A stretch of DNA of 64,000 bases from a phage, in assembly GCA_018509705.1 (NCBI GenBank), contig GCA_018509705.1_3630.1; one strand, written 5' to 3'. Of this stretch, positions 1,300-15,092 are shown one piece after another. Position 1 is the stretch's first letter. Each line of letters starts with the position of its first letter. Below the pieces are notes generated by a model. It was given only the letters and a program-made list of their open reading frames with translations, did not search any database and had not been told where the DNA came from. The translations under genes and the position numbers were made by a program.

Positions 1300-4200
1300 T
1301 TAGTCGTGAGACTCGTTCCAAGGTCCCTGGAAGCTTGAGTTAGAACGACTAACGATCACAGTGGGACAGGAGATTGTGACACCTGTCACGCTAGACGTTG
1401 ACCACGGTGTGTAAATCTCGATAACAATGTCTATAGTTTGTTCACCCAGACCTGTTATCCCTACCGCACACATGCCGTTGTTGTCGTTAAAATACTTCTT
1501 GCCAGCAAGGATCTGATGACCAGCTATCCATGCATTCAATTGGGAGCTGGCAAGAGTACCATTCAGTTTAAAGAAGAATGTTACGTTCTTACCCTGACCT
1601 GAAACGTTATCTACGTATCTCCACCTCCAACGGCAAACCCTTTGCTGGGAGTTATATACTGGAGCACAATCCCCGTAAGTCCTGTGTGCAACAATTGCAC
1701 CTTCGAACTGGTTAGCGCGGATAACAGAAGCTTCTACACGACCACGGAAGGTACCTCCGGTTGCATCTATGGTGCCTCTAAAGCTACCATTATTGGCATA
1801 AACATCACCACGGAAGGTACCACTAGTGGCGTTAACTGCCCCTGTGAAGTTACCAGAACTGGCGTTGATGTTGCCTTTCACCCACACATCCATAAATTGG
1901 GCGTGCCCGTTCTTGTTAATATACCAACCGTATTGATGGTACCCGTTGCCATCGTAGTTGTTTGACGAAATTTCTTGTGCGATCTTGGCAGAGGAGATCG
2001 TGCCATTCTCTATAAAAGCGTCTTTCAAGAACGCTTGGTTATTCTTGATTGCGAAAGCAAGGGTTGCTGTGCCGTTGCCAGGATTGTACACCGCAAAGTT
2101 GTTTGCACTAACCATAAAGTATGATTGAACTTGTCCTCCAGACCCCTCCATGCCCAGCTGGATACCTGCCACATATTTATTACCATGGCTGTCAACCTGA
2201 ATCTTAGCTCCCCACTGAGCATCTATTTTACCCTCAAGTGTTGTTACAGCTTTAGAGGTATTAGATACTGTAGCCCTAAGCTCATCAATATTACCCATTT
2301 CGTCAACAATTTCTTGTTTTGCAGAGGTAAGTTCTTGACGGATCGCTGTGGCTGTATTATTAACAAGATCAACTGTTGTACTATTAGTTTCTTGAATAGA
2401 TGCTTGCAGATTGGCAACCTCTTTCTGCACATCATCTTCCAGCTCGGTGATCTTCCCTGTAGCTGCCACCAGATCCTGCTTAATAGCTTCCGTTGTCTTA
2501 TTTAGCAGGTCGGTTGTTGCCTTGTTGGTTTCTTGAATAGAGGAGTTAAGTTTGCTCTCAGTGTTCTTCAACTCTTCCCGCAGAGTACCTTGAGTTGCAG
2601 TTATTTGCTCACTCAATGCTTGAGTTTTACGATTAACAAGATCAACGGTTGATCTATTTGTTGTCTCGATTAGTGACCCAAGCCTACCAGACTCTGCTGC
2701 AAGTTTATCGTCAAAGGATTGCTGAGCTGCTACCAGCTTACTGTTAAGGGCAGAAATTTCTCCATTAACCCCTGTAAATTTTTCTGTCGTCTCTCTGACA
2801 ACACCCTCTATTGTATCTCCAAGCTCTTCAAAAATGCTAGTAACACGGTCATTGACTGCACCAACATTTTTATCCATTTCCTTGACTGCATTATCGAGAT
2901 TGGCGGTAAGCTCTTTATAAGTCTCTGTCTTTTTGAACTCAGCATCAATCTGAGGCATCAAATCTTCAATAGAGGTATAGCAGCGTGCAGCGCATTCTAC
3001 AAACTGAGAACTACCAAAAGCGTTTGTGGTTCGAATATACCAATAATAAACCTTATCGTTCTGCAGACCTTCAGATGTCCAAGTTGAACCAACACCCATA
3101 CGGGTGGCTTTTGAAGTAACGGTTGCATCACTAGTGTCTGGCAACCTTGTCATACCAGATGTCCAAAAGTCATACTGGGTGCTTACACTTGCTAAATCCC
3201 TACTGTGTGGGATCAAGGTGATAGCGAAGTATCCCTGCTTAACCTCTACAGAAACCGGAGCTTCAGGTGCCTGAATGTTAAACTCGCAGTACGCTTCTGG
3301 AGATACACCACCTTTATAAGATGTTGCAACCACGGTTGCTGTGTATGACCCTTTGGTCAAGCCTTCTACTCGGACAAACTGCTCAACTGTCTGTGCTGTC
3401 CAAACAATCTCTCCGTTCTTTCTTACCTGTACAATATTTTGAGCGTAAGTCCCAACGTTGTCCCAAGCCAAAACACCGTGAGTCACTTCTCCAGCTTGGA
3501 GAACGGAATATCTGAAGTTTTGTGGTTGAGCTACACCAGATGGAGATATCGGAATATCTACATCGCCAGAATCCGGAAGTTGCCCTGTGGCATCATTCCA
3601 CTCTTTAGCATCTTGACGAAGTTTTACCTTGACACCCCCCTTTTTGGTAAACTCCCATTCAAGAACTCTCATTTCTTGGCCCACTATACCAATACTTGGG
3701 AGGTCCATTGTAACGTAACGACCAGGTTTAAATTTGAAACCTCGCATATTGCAGGTGACTTCAATAATCCTGCCAGCTCTGGCACGTCTTAGGAAGATTG
3801 CAGAAACACGCTGAGCTTGATAAGGACTGGTAACAAAGCGATAATCTATATCGATTATCTTTCTTTCTCCATCCTTCTCTATCCACTCTGGGACAAACAC
3901 TGATGGAAAATCTGTTTCAGAATACCCTTTGGTCGGACTAGTGAATCTGCCAGTTATTGTGTTGGATCTTTTGTCAAATGAGGCTTCCGGATAGATCTTG
4001 ACCTCACCACAGACACAATCCTCACTCAGTGTCATTGTTGCCGGGCCATAGTATGCACCAACCAACAAACCATACTTACCAGCTACATAACTAAGATCTG
4101 CACCGCAAGCTTTCAGCATTTCTGCCATAATACTTGCTGGGGCCTCATCCATGTCAAACTCACCGTTAATGGTGTAACGGCGCTCACTGGTTCCGTCTGC

Positions 4201-4899
4201 GTTTTTTACCGCCTCGTCGCATATGTTGGCAGCCTCCTTGAAGGACTCCCAGTTGATGGTTTCGTCAGGACATTTAAGGTACGTTCTTAAATAGTCTAGG
4301 ATCACCAAGGCAGCGTTATTGGTATACACCTCTTTACTGATACGAGGATCATAGCATTTTTTACCAACCTTGACGAGTGTAACGTTTGGCAACCCAAAAG
4401 GAAACTTGTTAGGGTCAAACCTGAAGCTGGCACGTAGCCAACTGATCCCTCTACCTATCATGTCAGGTGACCATGATGGGCAGTGTGTGCCCATGAAAGG
4501 ATCAGATGTTTTTCTGTCGTTATGTAGCTCCCACGATACCAAATCCCCATACGAGGAAATAGGATTACCGTCGATAAGTATATCTTCTACACCTTCCAGA
4601 GGGTGATTGGCAAGAACAATAGCACAGTGGAGAGTTCTGTCTCTATCCTGCTCCAAAAACGCAAGCAATCCGGATGTGCGTGTCTTCCCATACACTACAG
4701 AGCAAGGTGCAGCAGAAGATCTGAGAAGCTTTTGTCTATCTTGCTGACTTCTGTAAGATTTGTTGCCCTCAAAAATCTTATCCAGAGTTCTGGTGGTAAC
4801 AGTGTTCAGGCTGTCAGCCAGAGCTGCCTTGGATGCGTTCCAGTCATAACTTGAAGATCTTGCAGAAGCAACGATGTTATCAATCATTGCAATTGGCAT
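1300..4899 (-). CDS. large tail fibre / host-specificity protein (1199 aa) with central heptad repeats and C-terminal G-T-F-R-G repeats
   Basis: ORF track; three roughly 35-aa repeats (SIQETN..TTDLLNKTTEAIKQDL) and SGNFTG/SGTFRG/GSFRG/GTFRG repeats; terminator hairpin just downstream. Confidence 0.6.
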   Translation of the reverse strand: MPIAMIDNIVASARSSSYDWNASKAALADSLNTVTTRTLDKIFEGNKSYRSQQDRQKLLRSSAAPCSVVYGKTRTSGLLAFLEQDRDRTLHCAIVLANHPLEGVEDILIDGNPISSYGDLVSWELHNDRKTSDPFMGTHCPSWSPDMIGRGISWLRASFRFDPNKFPFGLPNVTLVKVGKKCYDPRISKEVYTNNAALVILDYLRTYLKCPDETINWESFKEAANICDEAVKNADGTSERRYTINGEFDMDEAPASIMAEMLKACGADLSYVAGKYGLLVGAYYGPATMTLSEDCVCGEVKIYPEASFDKRSNTITGRFTSPTKGYSETDFPSVFVPEWIEKDGERKIIDIDYRFVTSPYQAQRVSAIFLRRARAGRIIEVTCNMRGFKFKPGRYVTMDLPSIGIVGQEMRVLEWEFTKKGGVKVKLRQDAKEWNDATGQLPDSGDVDIPISPSGVAQPQNFRYSVLQAGEVTHGVLAWDNVGTYAQNIVQVRKNGEIVWTAQTVEQFVRVEGLTKGSYTATVVATSYKGGVSPEAYCEFNIQAPEAPVSVEVKQGYFAITLIPHSRDLASVSTQYDFWTSGMTRLPDTSDATVTSKATRMGVGSTWTSEGLQNDKVYYWYIRTTNAFGSSQFVECAARCYTSIEDLMPQIDAEFKKTETYKELTANLDNAVKEMDKNVGAVNDRVTSIFEELGDTIEGVVRETTEKFTGVNGEISALNSKLVAAQQSFDDKLAAESGRLGSLIETTNRSTVDLVNRKTQALSEQITATQGTLREELKNTESKLNSSIQETNKATTDLLNKTTEAIKQDLVAATGKITELEDDVQKEVANLQASIQETNSTTVDLVNNTATAIRQELTSAKQEIVDEMGNIDELRATVSNTSKAVTTLEGKIDAQWGAKIQVDSHGNKYVAGIQLGMEGSGGQVQSYFMVSANNFAVYNPGNGTATLAFAIKNNQAFLKDAFIENGTISSAKIAQEISSNNYDGNGYHQYGWYINKNGHAQFMDVWVKGNINASSGNFTGAVNATSGTFRGDVYANNGSFRGTIDATGGTFRGRVEASVIRANQFEGAIVAHRTYGDCAPVYNSQQRVCRWRWRYVDNVSGQGKNVTFFFKLNGTLASSQLNAWIAGHQILAGKKYFNDNNGMCAVGITGLGEQTIDIVIEIYTPWSTSSVTGVTISCPTVIVSRSNSSFQGPWNESHD

Positions 4900-5336
4900 T
4901 AATACCTCCAGACATCAACAACGATAGAATCTTTCATGTCGAACATAAAGACCCCTTTATCACCTTTCGCCCAAATCTGGTTGTTCCAGAACACACCAGC
5001 GGTGAGCCCGTTCAGACCTTCGAAAATGACAATATCTCCACGCTGAACCTGTTTAGGAGTATCCAGCCGAGTCAGAAAGAGATCAAAAATAGTAGGCAGG
5101 TGTGCGGTTTTGAAACGAAGCATGCACCATCTTTTGCTTTCCAACTCTGTTTTATACGTTCCTTCGAAATTAGAAAGAAAATCTGTTCCGTATTGGGCAT
5201 CAACACACTTAGCTGCAAAGGTGCAACAATCGTGGAATCCCCATTCAAAAGGTATGGTGGCCTCTTCGTCAAATACTTTCCACAATCTTTCTTGCCAGTC
5301 CACTAGACGAGGATGTGTGCTCATTAAACCTCCCAA
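4899..5336 (-). CDS. hypothetical tail-tip protein with WGFHDCC motif (possible NlpC/P60-like cysteine peptidase)
   Basis: ORF track; position immediately upstream of the giant fibre gene; motif similarity only. Confidence 0.3.
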   Translation of the reverse strand: MGGLMSTHPRLVDWQERLWKVFDEEATIPFEWGFHDCCTFAAKCVDAQYGTDFLSNFEGTYKTELESKRWCMLRFKTAHLPTIFDLFLTRLDTPKQVQRGDIVIFEGLNGLTAGVFWNNQIWAKGDKGVFMFDMKDSIVVDVWRY

Positions 5337-5890
5337 ATGATCGGGCGGCTCGCCACCTGATCCACATATTTAAAAAATCTGTCATTATCGTTTCTTGAGC
5401 TGTGGCTTTCCTCCGTGTACCGATAAGGAAAACCTCTTAACCAACTGTTGAAGATGGAAGAGATGGATATGGACAAAGCACTATTCTCCCCTGTCTGAAT
5501 AGCCATATCTGTTATAAGGCCGTCAAACAAGCCATTAGTTGTGACAGGCAGACCATTCTCCATAGCGGTAATGTACAACGTGGCACGACAACCGGAATAC
5601 TCCGTCTTCAGAAGATCACCCACATACTTAGGATCAAACCCGTTCAATGTCGCTACCACAGATCCGAAGTTGGTGGCATCTTTCTCAGACACAGCAGTTA
5701 ACGTTGCTGATCCACCTATCCCTATAAAATGTTGCCCCTCAATTACTACAACACCAGTGCCTGAGCACACCCTGACAGTTCCTGTCGGTAGCTCCAGCTT
5801 TGCAGCAATTAAGATCTCAACACCATCAAGCTCCAGCTTTTCAAGAAATAAATTATCTAATGGCGCTCTGATCATCTTAGAAATCCTCAA
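5324..5890 (-). CDS. hypothetical virion (tail) protein
   Basis: ORF track; operon context between fibre genes. Confidence 0.3.
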   Translation of the reverse strand: MRISKMIRAPLDNLFLEKLELDGVEILIAAKLELPTGTVRVCSGTGVVVIEGQHFIGIGGSATLTAVSEKDATNFGSVVATLNGFDPKYVGDLLKTEYSGCRATLYITAMENGLPVTTNGLFDGLITDMAIQTGENSALSISISSIFNSWLRGFPYRYTEESHSSRNDNDRFFKYVDQVASRPIIWEV

Positions 5891-6467
5891 AGAAGTTGAT
5901 AACTATATTATCACCTTTTTGCATAGCATCGACTTTTTGCTTAATTTTATAAATATCTCTGATATGAAACCTACCCTTCGGGGATTGAGTTATTATCTTC
6001 ATAGTGTCCCCTGCGGCAATAGGTTTTCTAAGTCTTGGAGATATGCTTATAACAGCAGACCCAACACCATCGCTACGCACTGGAGCTGTTACCACTTTCA
6101 ATTCATCATTGACAGATATTTTATCCCCAGCTCTGGCTATGTCTCTGTTTGGCTCCCACCCAACCGTCTTCAAAAAATCGTCGTTACCAGTAGGCCCAAG
6201 GGCGATTGGCTCATTAGCTGTAACTGAGTGACCGTAAGTTTTAATAAGAAAGATGTTTCCATCTTTATACACCTGATCAACAAAGCTCTTAAGCTCTAGC
6301 AACTGTGACTCGCTGATATTGGAAACCGTCAAAGTGCCTTTCCAGTTAGGTGTGGCATAGGTTACTTTTTGCGTTTTACCTGTAAACGGACTTTTAAACG
6401 TAACAATATCTGCCAGCAGCTCCAATCTAATATCTGGAAGGTATCTAGGCCTTTCCCATAAAAACAT
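5877..6467 (-). CDS. hypothetical virion (tail) protein
   Basis: ORF track; operon context. Confidence 0.3.
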   Translation of the reverse strand: MFLWERPRYLPDIRLELLADIVTFKSPFTGKTQKVTYATPNWKGTLTVSNISESQLLELKSFVDQVYKDGNIFLIKTYGHSVTANEPIALGPTGNDDFLKTVGWEPNRDIARAGDKISVNDELKVVTAPVRSDGVGSAVISISPRLRKPIAAGDTMKIITQSPKGRFHIRDIYKIKQKVDAMQKGDNIVINFFEDF

Positions 6468-6529
6468 TGTGCCTCCAGGTTAAACAATCATGATAGTTAT
6501 TTTACCAGATTTTGAGTTAATACGCAATA

Positions 6530-6562
6530 CAAACAAAAAGCCCCCGCCGAAGCGAGGGCAAA
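6530..6562 (-). terminator. hairpin plus T-run terminator after the 1268-aa fibre gene
   Basis: Near-identical motif ccctcgcttcggcggggg followed by CTTTTTGTTTG on the minus strand. Confidence 0.45.
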
Positions 6563-6566
6563 ACAG

Positions 6567-9500
6567 TTACTTCAGTTTCTCTTGCAACCCAGTAACAACC
6601 TCTGTCAATTTTTTAACCTGCTCCTCAAGGGCGGTTATTTTATCGTCCTGTTCTCTGCAAACCTGGACAAGCAAGCCTGTTACGGCTGCGTAATCCACGC
6701 TGTAGAATCTTTCCTCTGTTATCAAAGGAGTTCCATCTTGATCAGGGTTTGGGATTTCCTTTCTTTGCACGAAAGAGCTAACTGCTTCCGGCAGTGCTTC
6801 AAGCACTTCTTGTGCTATAACACCTGCATAAGGCATACCGTTCTCTTTAAGAGTGTAAGTATAACCCTTCATCTTCCGGATAGCTTCTAACGCATCAGGA
6901 ATAACAGATATGTTGTCTTTCAGGTCTCTGTCAGAACTCTGATTGACAGATGTGCAATTCACAGCACCGTTTACAGAAAGATATCTTGATTTATCCGGCA
7001 AGGTACCGCAATGCCATACCCAATTTGCTTGAGACTCGTCAAGAACCTTAAACTCTAACACGTTTGGGCGATCCCCTGTGCTGCCGTTGCCCCAATAATG
7101 GAGTACAGCATCATCTTTAGGCAAGTTATCGGCGTTGGAGGAAAGACCATTAGCACCGACATGAATTTCCAGCTGAGTGCTGTTTTCGCCGAAAGTGTAA
7201 TTAGGTCTTAACTGAATGCCCTTACCAGCATCGTGTCTCCATTCTTCCCAAGTAAAGACATCGCCAACGTAGTTACCAGCACGAGTATATCTGTCGCCAA
7301 AATAGGTGATGTATTCCTGCACACAACCTTGCGGTCTGTTAGCTGTGTTTTTGTAAACAAGCAGTGTACCAGCGTACGGAGCAGGGTAGTGGCGATCTAT
7401 TACAAGTGCGTCAGCGTTTGAACCCTGGTGATAGAAACCTTCACGGCTACCATCGTAGTCATTAAGGTCTTCTGTCCCCAGACCTTGACCACGGTGCTGA
7501 ATAACTTTGTTCCACGCTCTGTGGTTTCCTTGCTCTATGGAACGAGTGTACAGCTGGTCTAAACGACCTGCCATCTGGAAAGCGTAGTTTCCAGAAAATG
7601 CCACAGACAACCCACCAACAACCATTGAACCTTCAGGTCCGTTGACGTTGCCAGCCAGTATTTTTGACGGATTATTATTCCCGAACTGATTGTTCCAATC
7701 TGCACCAGTATGACATACAAAACCGCCAGGGGCTGAGAAAGTACCGTCCTTGTTGAAGTTGTAGAATCTATGAGCTGTGCCTACAACATCGCGAACAATA
7801 ACTTGACCCGCTTCCGGAGTAGATCTGAACTCTGCCTGACCTTTGAGACCAGCACCATTACCGCATTTAGAGGTAAACGTACCGTTAGTCAGATCCTCTG
7901 TCCCATCGGATGCACACTGGAATCCTGCATTAGAGAATAACGCCTTTCTAGGACTGCCGTAGCACAAATAGTCAAGACCGTCTGCCCATAGCTCGACTTT
8001 TGGCATATTCATTTTGCTCATCACAGCATAGCGTTCAGCAGTGCCTATATAGTGCCACTGTGTGCCGCCCCCAGTGTAGAACCCTGAAGTACCTTTGAAG
8101 TCAACAATAGGTCTGGTATTGGTGTTGTTATCTCCAAGAATAGCAAGATTCAAATCTGCTGACTGAAGAGGTGCAACGAACTTAACCCCATCCTGATTGT
8201 CTGTTACAGCCCCAACCTGGTAATCTTGCTCTCTGGTAAACACTTCGACAACATTTCTACTTGCGTATATGCTGACAGGGAAAGCACGAGCCTCTACATA
8301 GAAAGCAACATACTCTTGTTTACCCCTTGTTGGAGCAACCATCCCAAGAAGTGCTTTTTCATTCTGGTAGAAATTTACTACCCCGTAGAAAGAGTCTCCC
8401 CTGTCAGTCCAGCCACCAGTTCTATAGTGACACTGCAGGGTGGCACAGTTCATAGGGTCATTTCCAGATGAAGACCTGGTGACTATAGTAATATCAGTGC
8501 CAGTTGCTGGAGCATAATATGGATCTGTTCTAACGATGATTGGGTAGTATTTACCATCCTCCATCCCTGCGGTTCTTGGCAGTGTTAAGAAATCTTTTAC
8601 ACCTGCGGCTATAGGAACTTTGAACAGATTCTGAGCATCTGCTAAAGTTGTAGCTCCAGTGCCACCTGCGGCGTGAGATAAAGGTTCCCACTTGGCCTTC
8701 CGGTTGTTATAAACACCCCATTCCAGAGTGCCGTTACCGGATTCGTCCATCCCGCCATCCCAGATAACCATCTTGGCGGCTTTCTTGGACCCCCAAAAGC
8801 CTCTTTCTGCTCCTGAACTACGGATCCACTCTCCAAGTCCCCAGTTTGTCAGCTGACCAGTAAGATCCCCAACCTGCATGTATTTAGGACAGTCTAATAC
8901 ACCGTCTTCGCGGAAACCTAAATATCTATGAGTTTCAGATCCTTTTGCACCTTTGTGCAGGTGGATTGTCAACCAAGTCTTATTGTCGTTTCTTACCTCA
9001 GAGTAGATCCTATACCCATGCTCAAGGACACCGTCAGCGCCGTATTTATCCCCATGGAGAATACCTGATGGCGACTTAACCTCAGAAGTGCTTTGAGACA
9101 GGTAAAGGTGCCCGAAGGTAGGGGTATTTCTAGACCCGAGACCGATGTGCGATCTAAAGGTATCATCGTTACGAGGTCTGACCATCGGCTGCCATGCAGT
9201 CCACTGGTTTGTGTTGGCCTGATAGGTTCTCAAATACCAAACATCTACGTTAGAGAATGGGTAGTATTCCTGACGACAACCTGTACCGCCGTTAGCATTG
9301 TTCTGCCAAACAATCAAGTGACCAGCACCAGAACCTGCAGGGTAACCATTTGCCTCAGTTGCATAAGCAGTCATCGGCTGGTAGTATACACCATCCTGAT
9401 TACCAGTCAAGTTATTGATATTGAAATTTGGCTCAAGGGCTGCACGTTGCTTATAGAAAGCCCCGATATTGATACGGACTCCAGCGGCATCTCTGGCCCC

Positions 9501-10373
9501 CGTACCGCCTTGCTCTATAGCAAGAGGTTGCCACGAGACTGTTTGTTGGTTCCACATGCCCCAACGGCCTGTTGCGTCAAGCTGCAAGTACCCTGCCGTG
9601 TTTAAATCATCTCCAGCACGGATAACTGTTCTTGTTGGGTTGTTTGCCTCCAGGCGTTTAAATTCATCACGAAGTGCTATTCTTTTTGTTGTTGCTACAC
9701 CGTTGGTTACTGCGATGGTATACATGGCTCCGGATGTAGCGCCACGGAAAATACCATCAACAGTTGTAGTATCACGACGAGATACCACACCGTTCAGAAA
9801 TTTTTCACCAGCTGCTACAGAAGGGTAGTTGGTGGTTCTTCCCTCTTCAATAACTGCAGGACCCACAAAGTTATCAAGGTGAATAACATCACCTACAGTG
9901 TGCACCGTACCAAAATCTACACGCTGTGCAAGTGCTTTAGCATCGTTAGCTGTCTGAACAGTAACATCCATTACATCCTGGACAGACTGCCCTTCGGCTG
10001 TCATGATCATAGATGCGCCAATGGTAGATTCCAGCTCCTCCCTTAGGGACGGGTCAGTATATACCATCCATGCAGCGTCAGTAATCCCACCATCTGAGTA
10101 CGGTGAAGATAGTGCAGGAACAGTGTGTGGAAATTCGCCTTTCCAACGCAGGTAGAGATCTTCCTCTTCAAAATAGGCAAAATCCATTGGGCCGTTTAAC
10201 TTACCACCTTCCTTAAAGGAGATTACATGAGAAACAGTCCCATCCACATGGACAACATCGCCAATTTTTACACGACGGGTCAGGTCTGGTTGTTGAACAA
10301 CCAGGTAATCATCCTCTGTCACTGCGGTAGTGGCAGGAAGAGATTCAATTCTGACAACTTTAATATCAGCCAT
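6567..10373 (-). CDS. tail fibre/tailspike protein (1268 aa) with C-terminal intramolecular chaperone (peptidase S74-like) domain
   Basis: C-terminus SDRDLKDNISVIPDALEAIRKMKGYTYTLKENG...ITALEEQVKKL is typical of autoproteolytic fibre chaperone domains; N-terminus shares a domain with the 13008-13676 protein. Confidence 0.65.
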   Translation of the reverse strand: MADIKVVRIESLPATTAVTEDDYLVVQQPDLTRRVKIGDVVHVDGTVSHVISFKEGGKLNGPMDFAYFEEEDLYLRWKGEFPHTVPALSSPYSDGGITDAAWMVYTDPSLREELESTIGASMIMTAEGQSVQDVMDVTVQTANDAKALAQRVDFGTVHTVGDVIHLDNFVGPAVIEEGRTTNYPSVAAGEKFLNGVVSRRDTTTVDGIFRGATSGAMYTIAVTNGVATTKRIALRDEFKRLEANNPTRTVIRAGDDLNTAGYLQLDATGRWGMWNQQTVSWQPLAIEQGGTGARDAAGVRINIGAFYKQRAALEPNFNINNLTGNQDGVYYQPMTAYATEANGYPAGSGAGHLIVWQNNANGGTGCRQEYYPFSNVDVWYLRTYQANTNQWTAWQPMVRPRNDDTFRSHIGLGSRNTPTFGHLYLSQSTSEVKSPSGILHGDKYGADGVLEHGYRIYSEVRNDNKTWLTIHLHKGAKGSETHRYLGFREDGVLDCPKYMQVGDLTGQLTNWGLGEWIRSSGAERGFWGSKKAAKMVIWDGGMDESGNGTLEWGVYNNRKAKWEPLSHAAGGTGATTLADAQNLFKVPIAAGVKDFLTLPRTAGMEDGKYYPIIVRTDPYYAPATGTDITIVTRSSSGNDPMNCATLQCHYRTGGWTDRGDSFYGVVNFYQNEKALLGMVAPTRGKQEYVAFYVEARAFPVSIYASRNVVEVFTREQDYQVGAVTDNQDGVKFVAPLQSADLNLAILGDNNTNTRPIVDFKGTSGFYTGGGTQWHYIGTAERYAVMSKMNMPKVELWADGLDYLCYGSPRKALFSNAGFQCASDGTEDLTNGTFTSKCGNGAGLKGQAEFRSTPEAGQVIVRDVVGTAHRFYNFNKDGTFSAPGGFVCHTGADWNNQFGNNNPSKILAGNVNGPEGSMVVGGLSVAFSGNYAFQMAGRLDQLYTRSIEQGNHRAWNKVIQHRGQGLGTEDLNDYDGSREGFYHQGSNADALVIDRHYPAPYAGTLLVYKNTANRPQGCVQEYITYFGDRYTRAGNYVGDVFTWEEWRHDAGKGIQLRPNYTFGENSTQLEIHVGANGLSSNADNLPKDDAVLHYWGNGSTGDRPNVLEFKVLDESQANWVWHCGTLPDKSRYLSVNGAVNCTSVNQSSDRDLKDNISVIPDALEAIRKMKGYTYTLKENGMPYAGVIAQEVLEALPEAVSSFVQRKEIPNPDQDGTPLITEERFYSVDYAAVTGLLVQVCREQDDKITALEEQVKKLTEVVTGLQEKLK

Positions 10374-10408
10374 TCTTTCTCCTGAAAGGGGGCAAACAGC
10401 CCCCTATG

Positions 10409-13006
10409 TTAAAGGTACAATCCACGGTATTGAGCATAAAGGCCCAGGCCGCGAAGGATTTCGCCAGAGTGATAGCCCACCGGATCAGAAACTGCCCAGC
10501 AGCCGTTTAAAACATTATCCCCATTGATGAAGTGGTGCTTTTGCAGTAGCTTCATACAGGCTTCTACAACAATGTCTATTTGAGGTATTGTCTCTGAATA
10601 CCCGCACAGACCTAGCCAGCAGCAACCTGCAAGCCATTCACCTACCACCCACATCCTGTCCCCTCTGTCTTGATAAGAATATCCCCCAGAGGTGTTAAAG
10701 TCTGTAGGCAGATTTCCTGAATGAGATGACTGGAATCTGTTGAGGAACCATGCCCATTTCTGGCAGAACAGGAATAATCTTTCATCAACAGGTTCTTTAT
10801 GTTTCTTGAGCTCATAGATTGTGCGGCACGCAGCAACAAAAGATCTTGACTGGAGCTTAGAGTTATCTACCATCTCCCACCAACCAGTCAGCCCTTCATT
10901 ACCTCTCTGCCATACATAACGCGAGGCAACTGGACCCTCTGTCTTAAATGTATTATTATACCAGACTTGAGCGTCATACAGAAAGCCTATTGTATTTGAC
11001 AATCTATGGCGATCTATGTTTTCTGCACCCATGCAGTATACTGCTGGGTATTGCATGCCAGGGTAGGGCCAATTTGGCTTTTCCTCTAAGAGATAGTTTT
11101 CCTTATCTATCACCTTTCCGGCAGGGAACACACCTGGTGTGTGCCTGTATGCACCTTGCTTGTAGTTTCTGACATAGCAATCACCAACCTTAGCGGTTGA
11201 TTCTGTCTTGCTTGCCATCCATACGCTAAACCATATTAGATAAGCATCCCTATCTGCAATATAGAACTGCGGCAGCGTGTTTACGCAGTACAGATCAAAC
11301 AAGCCATTACCTATCTGCCTGTCGCTTAGGCTGAAATCTACAGAGGTGAGCCCCTTAGGATTAGCAAAGAAAGGTTTAATCTCTTCTTCGGTGTGATGAG
11401 GTTGTGTCGGATCTAGTTTGAAATCTCCTAGAGTAAGAGTTTCTGTTATCCATTGTCCATTAGTGGCATATAGATCAGCATACCATAACCACCTATCTTT
11501 GTCAAGAAATTTGACCCTTACCATCTCATCATCTGATCTATAAGTTACTGAGTTTAAAGAAATCTCTCTCCCAAAATTGAAAGTTACTTTACCTCTTGCT
11601 ATATTACAACGGGTGAAGTTGTCAGAGTGGTTGTAAATGTCGGTATCATACTGCATACTAACACTAGCGCCACCGCTTACGACAATGTTTTCCTCTTTAG
11701 GTAAGAGATACGGATTACCGTCTTTACCAACTACCTCTACGAAATCAGTAACCTTGGCAACTATTTCTGTTACCTCTGCCCCTCCAAAAGGAACCCCTAT
11801 CCTGTACTGTTTTTTGTTATTGTTGCCATCATTAAGGATGAAATGTGGCTGGAACAGAACCCCTTCTCCTCCGAAATTCATAACAATTTCAGCATCTCTG
11901 CCTATTTTGTATGTAGTCCCTTTTTGAATTATTTCGCAAGGCTGGCGTGCGTTCATTCTAAAATTGATATACCCGTCACTGTCCCTGCTCATGGCAGGAA
12001 CTGTTCCTGCAACAAGGCAAGTACCATCTGTAAACGGTGCCTTAATCAACGTGGTCTTCCTAAACAGTTTGTCGTAGGCGTTTATATCACTGAAATTAAG
12101 CAATTTGTTGTAAGACTGTTTAAACGCGGTGTAATACTTTTCCTCACCTGTCAAGGTGTAGAGTTGATAACAAGCGTCACACCACATTTCTTCCCCGTCC
12201 AACTCTGGGGCCTGATTATCTGCAACCACGTTTATGGGATTTACAATTACAGGGGATCCTGCAGGTATCACCGATCCACCCTGCTCTTGAGGTAATCTTA
12301 CACAATAGGTCACCTTGTGGCTGCCTGTAACACCCTTATCTTGTAATTGGATTGTGCCGAACTCTACAGACGTATGACCACTGTCGGCTATGCTACCGTT
12401 AGCCCAATAGCGGTTACCATCCCATGCTATGTACCACTCAACCCACCAACTTAATCCGGATGTTGTCCAATCTGGGTTAGCATCTGTGCCACCGTAAACA
12501 TCAGAGTCTACAGTGTTTCTTCCTAACACACCGTTATACGCTTGGAATGCCTTGTCAAGGTATTCCCCCCATGTCGGAGATCCAGCTGGGATTTTTCCTC
12601 TACCGTTGGTAAAAGACACCACCACATCTTTAAACCCACCATGTGATGGAACCCCATCTGTGGATAGAGGGTAGTGGGACAATCTTTGCATTTTACTTTC
12701 TACTGCATATGCACCCAGAAGATGACTATTGTAAGCTTCCCAAGCATCTTTTGCCCTATCCAGATAGAAATCGCTTTTCGATGCCCTGTATGCTTCAATG
12801 TATCCCAGAATCAACACAGCTTGGGACTCATGCATTGCCCAATCATTATTTATCTTATTACCTGCCCACCCTGCAGCTATAAGACCATCAGGGTTTACTA
12901 ACTTATTTTGTGTAGGGGTGTTGGTAATACCTGTGTTGTTATCGAGGCACTTCCTGTGCCCCTCAATCATCTGAAATACGTTATCAATGTTATGTTGAAT
13001 ACGCAT
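10409..13006 (-). CDS. large tail-associated protein (865 aa), possible receptor-binding or depolymerase-type protein
   Basis: ORF track; size and position between fibre genes; no motif recognised with certainty. Confidence 0.35.
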   Translation of the reverse strand: MRIQHNIDNVFQMIEGHRKCLDNNTGITNTPTQNKLVNPDGLIAAGWAGNKINNDWAMHESQAVLILGYIEAYRASKSDFYLDRAKDAWEAYNSHLLGAYAVESKMQRLSHYPLSTDGVPSHGGFKDVVVSFTNGRGKIPAGSPTWGEYLDKAFQAYNGVLGRNTVDSDVYGGTDANPDWTTSGLSWWVEWYIAWDGNRYWANGSIADSGHTSVEFGTIQLQDKGVTGSHKVTYCVRLPQEQGGSVIPAGSPVIVNPINVVADNQAPELDGEEMWCDACYQLYTLTGEEKYYTAFKQSYNKLLNFSDINAYDKLFRKTTLIKAPFTDGTCLVAGTVPAMSRDSDGYINFRMNARQPCEIIQKGTTYKIGRDAEIVMNFGGEGVLFQPHFILNDGNNNKKQYRIGVPFGGAEVTEIVAKVTDFVEVVGKDGNPYLLPKEENIVVSGGASVSMQYDTDIYNHSDNFTRCNIARGKVTFNFGREISLNSVTYRSDDEMVRVKFLDKDRWLWYADLYATNGQWITETLTLGDFKLDPTQPHHTEEEIKPFFANPKGLTSVDFSLSDRQIGNGLFDLYCVNTLPQFYIADRDAYLIWFSVWMASKTESTAKVGDCYVRNYKQGAYRHTPGVFPAGKVIDKENYLLEEKPNWPYPGMQYPAVYCMGAENIDRHRLSNTIGFLYDAQVWYNNTFKTEGPVASRYVWQRGNEGLTGWWEMVDNSKLQSRSFVAACRTIYELKKHKEPVDERLFLFCQKWAWFLNRFQSSHSGNLPTDFNTSGGYSYQDRGDRMWVVGEWLAGCCWLGLCGYSETIPQIDIVVEACMKLLQKHHFINGDNVLNGCWAVSDPVGYHSGEILRGLGLYAQYRGLYL

Positions 13007-13007
13007 C

Positions 13008-13676
13008 TTAGATAGCTCCTGCGATAATCAGTGCCCCGTACCAAGTTAACCCGTTGTCGTAGGTTTCCAACTTGAAAATATCTGTTGCACCAGCTGTAAA
13101 TGTTAGGATAGGATCTCTTCCGTAGGACCATTTAACATTACCAGGCCAATAGACTTTGTTGCCGCCAGAGGTCTGAGTAATGCATACGGTTATAGTTCTC
13201 GCCACCCCTTCAAGACCTTCTGTTTGATTTTCAAAAGAGATTGTGGTATTTGAAGTTAGTCGAACCTTAAAGGTATCCGCCACTTCAAGATCCATATCAA
13301 GCTGACCACCGATAGATCCGTAATCAACTATTCTGCCAGAAGAAGTTGCAGCAAGCTCACCAAAAACAGACCAGGCGTTTGCAGACACACCCCCAGCACC
13401 CTCTACAGTGGAGTCTGGGAGGATTATTTTAGGATAATCCCCGTTCCACGTGTAGTAGCGCTTAGTTTCTGGATCATAAGCAAAGTCCTTCTTGCTCTTA
13501 AGATAACCACCCTCTGTGAAATAGACTATTTTAGTAATGCTGAGATCGTTGACAACATCATCAATCTTAGCCTTTCTTGTCCCATCAGTCTGGTTGACAA
13601 CCAAGAAGTCATCACTCAGGACTGTTTCTGCATCTTCAAGATCTGGAATTGGTATTGTAGGATAAGCTACAGCCAT
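13008..13676 (-). CDS. tail fibre N-terminal anchor-domain protein (222 aa)
   Basis: N-terminal region (DDFLVVNQTDGTRKAKIDDVV...FTEGGYLKSKKDFAYDPE) parallels the N-terminus of the 1268-aa fibre (DDYLVVQQPDLTRRVKIGDVV...FKEGGKLNGPMDFAYFEE). Confidence 0.4.
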   Translation of the reverse strand: MAVAYPTIPIPDLEDAETVLSDDFLVVNQTDGTRKAKIDDVVNDLSITKIVYFTEGGYLKSKKDFAYDPETKRYYTWNGDYPKIILPDSTVEGAGGVSANAWSVFGELAATSSGRIVDYGSIGGQLDMDLEVADTFKVRLTSNTTISFENQTEGLEGVARTITVCITQTSGGNKVYWPGNVKWSYGRDPILTFTAGATDIFKLETYDNGLTWYGALIIAGAI

Positions 13677-13685
13677 GATTTCTCC

Positions 13686-14402
13686 TTAGTTAACATCAAT
13701 AGCACGACCAGACTGGTTGGCAATAGCCTCATCATTGGAGGTAGCAATAACACCAGAGTATTCGCGCTCATCTGGAGCAAGCGTCCAGGTATTGCGGTTA
13801 ATGGTTTGTTCTGCCTCAGTCATCAGCAGATCTTTATCCTGAGTCAACAGAGAGCCTACAGGGATCGGGTTTTCCATCTCAGGACCAGCATACTGGTTCC
13901 ACCATGTGGCATCTCCGGTTCTAGGCAATCTGAAGTTGATCAGGTAGTACAGTTTATTAGCCCACTTAATCCAACCTTCATCATCACAGAGAGAGGTTGT
14001 CCCAGAATCAGGCTGTGGGTAGGTAAACTGATCAAGACCTACAAAAGCCAGCCTTACAATCTCGTTCTCTTTGGTAACAACCTCAAAGAACGCTTGGTAT
14101 GTTCTCGATCTTCGATCCATGGTAGACTGGAAGTTTACGATGTTTAGCACATCCGGCTCTTGTCTTGCCACTTCCATAATCTTGTTATCAAGAACAGTCT
14201 TCATGACCTTCTTACTGAGAAAGTCCATATAAGGGAAGCCAAACAACTCGTCAAAGTACCAGCTCCCCTTCCACGTATTAAACCTCATCCACAAGCGCTG
14301 GCGTAGACTTACCTGGTTTGAATCTATCAACTCAAGACCTTTGTCTATCGCCAAATCGCCTGTCTGTGGGTCCATCAATATATCACTATAAAGCGTAGCC
14401 AT
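13686..14402 (-). CDS. hypothetical baseplate protein
   Basis: ORF track; context. Confidence 0.3.
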   Translation of the reverse strand: MATLYSDILMDPQTGDLAIDKGLELIDSNQVSLRQRLWMRFNTWKGSWYFDELFGFPYMDFLSKKVMKTVLDNKIMEVARQEPDVLNIVNFQSTMDRRSRTYQAFFEVVTKENEIVRLAFVGLDQFTYPQPDSGTTSLCDDEGWIKWANKLYYLINFRLPRTGDATWWNQYAGPEMENPIPVGSLLTQDKDLLMTEAEQTINRNTWTLAPDEREYSGVIATSNDEAIANQSGRAIDVN

Positions 14403-14414
14403 GAAAGCCCTCTA

Positions 14415-15092
14415 TTAGTGCGGTCCACTTGTCTCGCCATCAGGGCAAGAGTGGGTATGACCTTTATATTCTGCATAGAATGAATCCAAATCCACACCAG
14501 CAGCAGTTATAATTCTACCAGATGGGTCTATTGTGGCACCATTCATTCTGATATTTCCATCCACAGCAGCTCGCAAATTGGCAGCACCGTTAGTGAAAGA
14601 AAACTCCCCGCTGCTGTCGCACCGTAATGTCCCACCCGGTGTTTGAAGCTCAAAATCTCCAGAAGGTGTCAGTTTAAAATAGACCTTATCATTCCATAAC
14701 TCTACGTTATCAGGATCGATCTGTAAAGCGTTTGAGTCTGAATGAACAGAGGTTATTGCCCACCCAGGAAACAGGCCGTGAGTTTGTTGATCGTCGTTAT
14801 TGTTTTCATTTCTCTCTGAAAACTGCAATCCTACAACATCACCAGCTTTAATAGGAAGTGTTAACCTTGCCTTTCCACTGTTTGCAGACATCACCTGAAT
14901 TGGAACGTCATAGATAAGAGGGTATCTCTCCACATCTCCGTCATCAAACGTGGTTTCAGCTATTGGCTGCACGGCTGCAGAAGGGATACTGTAGTCTACA
15001 CTGACAACTCTGGCCCTGATACTGGTGTGGTAGTCCCTCATTATTTTTTCTATAAAGGATCTTACAGCAGCATCTTTCCTATTTATTGCCAT
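14415..15092 (-). CDS. baseplate central spike protein (gpV-like) with C-terminal H-T-H-S tip motif
   Basis: 225-aa ORF ending ...YAEYKGHTHSCPDGETSGPH; HxH-type motifs occur at spike tips of P2 gpV-like proteins. Confidence 0.4.
   Translation of the reverse strand: MAINRKDAAVRSFIEKIMRDYHTSIRARVVSVDYSIPSAAVQPIAETTFDDGDVERYPLIYDVPIQVMSANSGKARLTLPIKAGDVVGLQFSERNENNNDDQQTHGLFPGWAITSVHSDSNALQIDPDNVELWNDKVYFKLTPSGDFELQTPGGTLRCDSSGEFSFTNGAANLRAAVDGNIRMNGATIDPSGRIITAAGVDLDSFYAEYKGHTHSCPDGETSGPH

Follow-up and report, generated by a model that had tools for sequence, protein, structure and literature searches.

The window analysed here is a 64,000-nucleotide stretch of phage DNA (NCBI GenBank assembly GCA_018509705.1, contig GCA_018509705.1_3630.1), and our subject is a set of three tail appendage genes that it carries on the minus strand. 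These open reading frames (ORFs) encode a 222-amino acid (aa) protein (13008-13676), an 865-aa protein (10409-13006) and a 1268-aa lateral tail fibre precursor (6567-10373). A megablast search with positions 6000-14500 matched 124 phage records, 117 of them with at least 80% query cover and 99 at 95-99% identity, and the top matches, at 98%, were Escherichia phage navn and two records named 'Campylobacter phage D1' and 'D#'. Judged by these matches, the window is that of an rV5-like E. coli myophage (Vequintavirinae, Vequintavirus), 98% identical to known phages. The rV5 counterparts of the 222-aa, 865-aa and 1268-aa proteins are gp43, gp42 and gp41, respectively (PMC3606486).

In AlexBoehm, a curated BASEL relative, the genes for the tape measure, tube initiator, hub, central spike and a 'baseplate protein' are followed by those for a 222-aa 'sialidase domain protein', an 865-aa 'lateral tail fiber protein with glycosidase domains' and a ~1270-aa 'lateral tail fiber protein', and then by those for a Dit-like protein, a tail protein, a DUF6950 protein and a J-like protein. 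This order is repeated in the window on the minus strand, where a strong intrinsic terminator (6540-6559, minus strand; an 8-bp stem with 7 GC pairs, a 4-nucleotide loop and a T-run) lies 8 nucleotides past the fibre stop codon. The region is the gp43-gp42-gp41 appendage cassette, which comes after the genes for the central spike and the sheath initiator (13686-14402) and is closed by the terminator. The 222-aa protein belongs to phrog_7760 and the fibre matches phrog_6578 over its full length; a search of all three proteins against NCBIfam gave no match.

Pairwise BLASTP of the 222-aa protein (residues 8-105) against the 1268-aa fibre (residues 7-105) gave an alignment over 99 residues (38% identity, 55% positives, E = 4e-18) and recovered the motif from which the initial annotation of this locus had argued that the two N-termini are related. 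The homology is real and far beyond chance. Both proteins exceed the gathering score of 25 for Tail_spike_N (PF18668), with 41.0 bits for the 222-aa protein and 40.5 bits for the fibre, and the structural check proposed along with that claim also came out in its favour, as the module shows 3D similarity to solved CBA120-type tailspike heads, which places it in this family. A hidden Markov model (HMM) of both N-termini found no third copy among all 331 stop-to-stop ORFs of the window (next best E = 0.08).

The shared N-terminal module is bipartite. Sub-module A is a peptide of ~45 residues with the pattern MA....I.I..LP.TT.V...DYLVV.Q.D.T.K (residues 1-45 in both proteins; 13542-13676 in the 222-aa gene and 10239-10373 in the fibre gene, minus strand). 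Sub-module B is the Tail_spike_N 'head' domain, which spans residues 46-108 of the 222-aa protein (13353-13541, minus strand) and residues 46-105 of the fibre (10059-10238, minus strand; Pfam E = 2.9e-10). Sub-module B is like the heads of CBA120 tailspike proteins TSP1 and TSP3 and of G7C gp63.1, through which spikes are docked to other proteins of the tail. In the fibre it matches residues 23-73 of phi92 gp151 (45% identity, E = 3e-11), a protein that has B only, as well as the PDB sequences 9occ, 9lna, 9d84 and 4qnl and the CBA120 TSPs. Sub-module A is missing from the solved Tail_spike_N heads; it is found at the extreme N-terminus of the phi92 endosialidase gp143 and of phi92 gp140, with both of which the peptide of the 222-aa protein aligns. 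Fibre residues 9-47 align with gp143 residues 5-43 at 38% identity (39 residues, E = 1e-5). We also considered the phi92 colanidase, gp150, as a bearer of the N-terminal module and discarded it, as it lacks the module, which is present in a gp150-like protein of a Cronobacter phage.

The variable part of the cassette is confined to the fibre. Overall, the 1268-aa protein is 91.6% identical to its AlexBoehm counterpart, with 98-100% identity in the first 400 residues and again in the C-terminal chaperone. When compared in 50-residue blocks, the identity drops to 28-80% at residues ~900-1100 and is 94-100% in nearly all other blocks. In our phage collection, 112 records match the N-terminal 154 residues at 99% identity or more, and for residues 880-1146 only 7 records reach 95% and 102 lie at 60-80%; a third group of tip alleles aligns only along the first 170 residues of this 880-1146 query. 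The three tip alleles are those of this window, of rV5/AlexBoehm and of FFH2. Over the same residues, the allele of this phage is 67.8% identical to that of rV5, and T5-like L-shaped fibres are ~30% identical to the tip region. We regard residues ~900-1100 (7074-7676, minus strand) as the likely receptor-specificity determinant on the basis of these block identities and allele counts. The mosaicism of the tip agrees with the BASEL statement that allelic variation is restricted to the three largest fibre genes (PMC8594841). A knob-like repeat at fibre residues ~340-390 and ~995-1050 is not supported, since self-BLAST gave no significant internal repeat.

The fibre ends in an intramolecular chaperone (residues 1147-1268; 6570-6935, minus strand), as the initial annotation had supposed. 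The match to Peptidase_S74 (PF13884) scores 51.1 bits, where the cut-off is 22, and pairs residues 1147-1198 with profile positions 1-57, and the C-termini of PHROG fibres match residues 1086-1265. The domain opens with the Ser of a Ser-Lys dyad motif, S1147-D-R-D-L-K1152, with the Lys five residues on. In phi92 gp143 the equivalent motif, S757-DGTL-K762, has the same spacing and lies at the boundary between mature protein and C-terminal domain annotated in GenBank, and position 1 of the Pfam S74 profile falls on that Ser in both proteins. Because dyad and profile position match this annotated boundary, we predict autocleavage between S1146 and S1147, which would generate a 1146-residue mature fibre and a released chaperone of 122 residues. 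The tie between the two chaperones is one of profile and motif position, as a direct BLAST link was not significant (E = 0.23). rV5 gp41 has been detected in virions by 8 peptides (PMC3606486), five of which map to the window or AlexBoehm proteins, at residues 586-1056, and three of which are rV5-specific variants of sequences at residues ~435-830.

By contrast with the fibre tip, the other two proteins are nearly invariant. Identity reaches 95% or more in 119 phage records for the 222-aa protein and in 120 for the 865-aa protein, the latter being 99.8% identical to its AlexBoehm and 99.9% identical to its rV5 counterpart. The 865-aa protein is orthologous to phi92 gp141 (35% identity over the full length, E = 9e-179). 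Neither it nor its homologues, down to 26% identity, contain the N-terminal module, and it has no sequence match in Pfam or among PDB chains. Its AlphaFold2 (AF2) model, which was built on a shallow alignment (the word-indexed homologue search gave only 4 and 6 matches), has helical hairpins at both ends and beta-sandwich insertions, with a predicted local distance difference test (pLDDT) score of 70.6. We rejected all global PDB fold matches to this model, for which the template modelling score was at most 0.16; they gave only hints of a jelly-roll, a carbohydrate-binding module, a rhamnosidase and a C5-epimerase. One homologue, P0007, has a sub-threshold GH76 match (16.8 bits versus 25.9). 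The model lacks a convincing fold match, so the description 'glycan-active' is a weak one; the protein may well bind or process carbohydrate, and we treat it as conserved, anchor-less and putatively glycan-active cargo. The profile of its family, phrog_2871, has 1456 positions, of which the 865-aa protein covers only 114-1041, so that some members must have ~113 additional N-terminal and ~415 additional C-terminal positions.

The 222-aa protein, for which the AF2 model has a pLDDT of 82, proved to be a chimera. In an exhaustive HMMER search, its N-terminal module was found elsewhere at the head of proteins of 518-1481 aa, and most of its 3413 library matches at E ≤ 0.001 were to the remainder of the protein (residues ~110-222). 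This C-domain (residues 109-222; 13011-13352, minus strand) is a widespread end domain that lies at most 12 residues from the C-terminus in 123 of the 142 proteins examined. It aligns with residues 44-157 of phi92 gp140 (42% identity, E = 4e-30), and in isolation it gave no sequence match to PDB chains. Two leads were set aside. The BASEL label 'sialidase domain protein' for the 222-aa protein is not supported, its only sialidase matches spanning 25 aligned columns (E ~7), and a match to chain i of the PhiTE baseplate (E = 0.2) led nowhere, the corresponding paper describing a spacer of the Ig-like type and a third fibre that was left unmodelled. In giant proteins of 1400-2000 aa (P0018, P0014, P0027 and P0015), the C-domain is repeated in tandem, with up to five copies.

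The gene that follows the C-domain is always one of the 865-aa family. We surveyed 71 viral loci encoding relatives of the 865-aa protein; clustering of these homologues gave 22 groups at 90% identity and 14 at 70%. An ORF that ends in the C-domain stops directly upstream of the homologue in 69 of these loci; in the remaining two the tblastn match begins at residue 57, and both fit once this is allowed for. Of the records in the phage collection, 525 contain a member of the 865-aa family and 526 the C-domain, with almost identical taxon breakdowns and adjacent coordinates. The pair ranges over rV5-like, phi92-like and phAPEC8-like phages, jumbo phages such as SPN3US, Vibrio and Erwinia phages and prophages.

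Within these pairs, the N-terminus of the carrier changes with the type of phage and the C-domain stays. In rV5/phi92-type myophages, the carrier and the neighbouring fibre have the A-type peptide in common (z = 6-21). Locus L005 encodes a 153-aa protein, consisting of its own A-type peptide and the C-domain, followed by the 865-aa homologue and by a 1493-aa fibre that shares this A-type peptide and terminates in S74, and locus L006 encodes a carrier of 244 aa together with a 502-aa protein whose N-terminus is paralogous. In other lineages the carriers are coiled-coil fibres. A Burkholderia prophage has a SPRY fibre of 473 aa with the C-domain at its end, directly followed by the 865-aa homologue, and the jumbo phage SPN3US has a 156-aa 'tail fiber protein' directly before a 1005-aa 'tail protein'. 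In loci L017-L064 (contigs of ~30 kb) the carrier has 560-563 aa and a different N-terminus, which would be another solution to anchoring than the A-peptide. That N-terminus resembles the N-terminus of a protein of 156-168 aa whose gene lies ~4.5 kb downstream (z up to 7). We tentatively propose, at somewhat less than an even chance, that the C-domain and the 865-aa family constitute a previously undescribed two-gene 'carrier plus cargo' module found across hundreds of very different phages. Under this proposal, which we hold no more firmly in its details, the small or fibre-like protein might supply a lineage-specific anchor and the C-domain might hold the large, anchor-less protein.

Taken together, these data suggest an explanation of the whole cassette that we consider reasonably probable. 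The paralogous bipartite modules of the 222-aa and 1268-aa proteins would fix each trimer at the tail periphery, by homology with the CBA120 and G7C tailspike heads. The 1268-aa protein would be the variable receptor-binding fibre, in which a conserved anchor and shaft carry an exchangeable tip at residues ~900-1100. As expected from its family membership, the S74 chaperone would fold the trimeric tip and then cut itself off at S1146/S1147, leaving the 1146-residue fibre. The 222-aa protein, with its C-domain as the obligate genomic partner of the 865-aa family, would most likely be the adaptor through which the anchor-less 865-aa protein is held on the virion, a role suggested by comparative genomics. 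If the 222-aa protein does carry the 865-aa protein, the cassette builds two appendages via paralogous anchors. The obligate pairing of C-domain and 865-aa family fits a carrier and its cargo better than it fits two independent receptor-binding proteins.

The main rival to a carrier with its cargo would make the 865-aa protein a giant assembly factor. In this case the 222-aa protein would be a short fibre with the C-domain as its receptor-binding tip and the 865-aa protein its dedicated Tfa/gp38-like assembly factor, with no need for a virion enzyme role. The arrangement of the genes suits such a pair, as the 865-aa gene lies directly downstream, 1 nucleotide from stop to start, in an order that is universal, and the predominantly terminal position of the C-domain is like that of fibre tips. 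gp42 is also absent from the filtered rV5 mass spectrometry (MS) table. However, the family size of 860-1150 aa is far above that of known fibre chaperones, and searches with Pfam and NCBIfam found neither a Caudo_TAP nor a GP38 signature in the 865-aa protein, so that its only likeness to the Tfa/gp38 type is the position downstream of a fibre-like gene. The family is labelled 'tail protein' in PHROGs, phi92 and SPN3US, the rV5 text lists gp42 as detected in virions, and the model, with its beta-sandwich and helical-repeat parts, is weakly similar to carbohydrate-active enzymes. We thus regard an assembly factor as unlikely.

A second and rather improbable alternative concerns the shared N-terminal module, which might be a mere trimerisation or 'head' scaffold derived from duplication, with no common docking role and with each protein attached in some other way. 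In many tailspikes, sub-module B is indeed internal (residues ~95-165), downstream of other anchor domains, and Pfam revealed no docking partner in the window or the relative. Our reading of the module as an anchor is based on the homologous CBA120 heads, which dock experimentally: the D1-D2 heads of TSP1 and TSP3 are needed to dock on the gp10-like XD domains of TSP4 and TSP2 (PMC8825819). By homology with this characterised system, the N-terminal module would be a virion anchor; sub-module A is a putative docking peptide. The common anchor envisaged in the initial annotation thus gains support for the 222-aa and 1268-aa proteins and falls for the 865-aa protein, which has none.

The distribution of sub-module A also argues against a mere scaffold. 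The peptide lies at the very N-terminus, it is retained when the cargo is swapped entirely, as for the phi92 endosialidase and the T4-like fibre in L005, and it co-varies between both carriers of each genome. The two A-peptides of one genome are 34-55% identical, compared with a mean of 27% between genomes, with partner z-scores of 6-21 in five or six myophage lineages. An A-peptide HMM run over the window and over the complete fibre loci of phi92 and the rV5-like relative found exactly two carriers per genome, a small protein and an S74-bearing fibre or spike; this HMM was built from the sequences of the two carriers themselves, so its informative outcome is that no further ORF matched.

The initial annotation had seen three independent, interchangeable receptor-binding proteins on a common anchor, a model that we consider improbable: two of the three proteins do have the N-terminal module in common, all three are labelled tail or tail-fibre in relatives and the Vequintavirinae have been described with several coexpressed lateral fibres (PMC8594841), but no anchor is present in the 865-aa protein or any of its homologues, the C-domain and the 865-aa family are obligate neighbours, and the invariance of the 222-aa and 865-aa proteins in ~120 genomes is unlike that of modules which can be swapped for specificity. 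Only the 1268-aa fibre varies, and only at its tip. Given their invariance, neither the 222-aa nor the 865-aa protein behaves as an interchangeable module of specificity, and the former is probably not a host-range determinant.

Several points weigh against the explanation that we favour, in which a 222-aa adaptor carries the 865-aa protein beside an S74 fibre on paralogous anchors. The contact between carrier and cargo and the docking of the N-terminal modules are both inferred from sequence. No natural fusion of C-domain and 865-aa family was found among 159 proteins and 75 loci, and the tandem repeats of the C-domain in giant proteins mean that it may serve more generally as a structural domain. 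The main text of the rV5 study lists gp42 and gp43 among the proteins of virion proteomics (PMC3606486), yet both are absent from the filtered MS results in its Table S5 (19 proteins, including gp41, gp34, gp37 and gp27). The 865-aa model is of moderate quality and, as described above, lacks a convincing fold match, and sub-module A is predicted as a beta-hairpin and a short helix with low confidence (pLDDT 55-70). Pfam found no gp10-like XD domain among the window proteins or the fibre proteins of the relative, and the similarity of A-peptides within a genome could stem from duplication or gene conversion instead of a common docking site. Autocleavage of the fibre is a prediction on which the MS data have little bearing: coverage of gp41 is low, and although none of the 8 rV5 peptides comes from the chaperone, the probability of this by chance without cleavage is 0.45 (66 detectable mature peptides versus 7 from the chaperone). 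A search of the rV5 MS supplement for gp41 peptides from the chaperone region and from the N-terminus found neither.

The combination of a conserved N-terminal anchor with an exchangeable tip and an S74 chaperone is textbook phage modularity in a well-sampled genus, and the S74 domain of gp41 was already published in 2013. The cassette is of a familiar design. What is new, if modest, is the pairing of the C-domain with the 865-aa family and the occurrence of the A-peptide in two carriers. Our analysis delimits the likely specificity segment of the fibre to residues ~900-1100, between the conserved shaft and the chaperone, which is useful for host-range engineering, and it shows that the 222-aa and 865-aa proteins do not act as variable specificity determinants. 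The pairing also helps with the question raised by BASEL as to which genes build which Vequintavirinae fibre.

Beyond the terminator, the window contains a siphophage-style tail-tip module inside the myophage baseplate locus (1300-6467, minus strand). Its members are a Dit-like protein (5877-6467), a phrog_2048 tail protein (5324-5890), a DUF6950 protein (4899-5336) and a 1199-aa lambda-J-like protein (1300-4899) with Phage_Tail_Tip and Ig_J domains. Residues ~650-1000 of the J-like protein are hypervariable, with 8-64% identity to AlexBoehm, and this protein is probably a second specificity determinant. Between 18 and 24 'Campylobacter phage' records in GenBank (MG065646, MG065647, MG065661 and others), with C. 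jejuni listed as host, are 97-98% identical to E. coli rV5-like phages; they probably have the wrong host label or represent an E. coli phage carried along in preparations. The GC skew changes sign near ~38000, at the minimum of the cumulative skew, which coincides with the switch of the coding strand from minus to plus.

Among known systems, the branched complexes of CBA120 (TSP1-4) and G7C (gp63.1/gp66) are related to the cassette through their heads. These complexes are built on a gp10-like XD2/XD3 hub and consist of beta-helix depolymerase spikes, whereas the window appendages are a fibre and a small putative adaptor. Pfam did not detect such a hub in the window, and of the two proteins with a head only the fibre is a variable receptor binder; for these two reasons we do not assign the cassette to the CBA120 type. 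T5 pb1 and K1F endoNF (MEROPS S74) have the same C-terminal S74 domain with Ser-Lys dyad as the window fibre. The window fibre differs in its N-terminal attachment module and is one of a myophage baseplate, not of a siphophage collar.

The direct orthologues of the three proteins are rV5 gp41-gp42-gp43, in the same gene order, with a different tip allele in the window fibre. rV5 gp41 has been described as a fibre of the L-shaped type, with a Peptidase_S74 domain similar to the K1F chaperone, and gp43 as a tail-fibre protein whose N-terminus is like that of tailspikes (Kropinski et al. 2013, PMC3606486). In the rV5-related literature we found no statement of the N-terminal paralogy of gp41 and gp43 or of the partnership between the gp43 C-domain and gp42.

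The gp140-gp141-gp143 genes of phi92 follow the same cassette logic. gp140 consists of sub-module A and the C-domain, gp141 is the orthologue of the 865-aa protein, and gp143 consists of sub-module A, a receptor-destroying domain and an S74 chaperone with its annotated cleavage at the equivalent Ser. The two cassettes differ in that the fibre slot of phi92 holds an endosialidase where the window has a long fibre, gp140 and gp143 are without sub-module B and gp142 sits between the genes. A 2026 cryo-electron microscopy study of phi92 left fibre II and the arm of fibre I without assignment and did not consider gp141 (PMC13450770). If the 222-aa type of protein does carry the 865-aa type, gp140-gp141 would be a candidate for fibre II or for the arm of fibre I.

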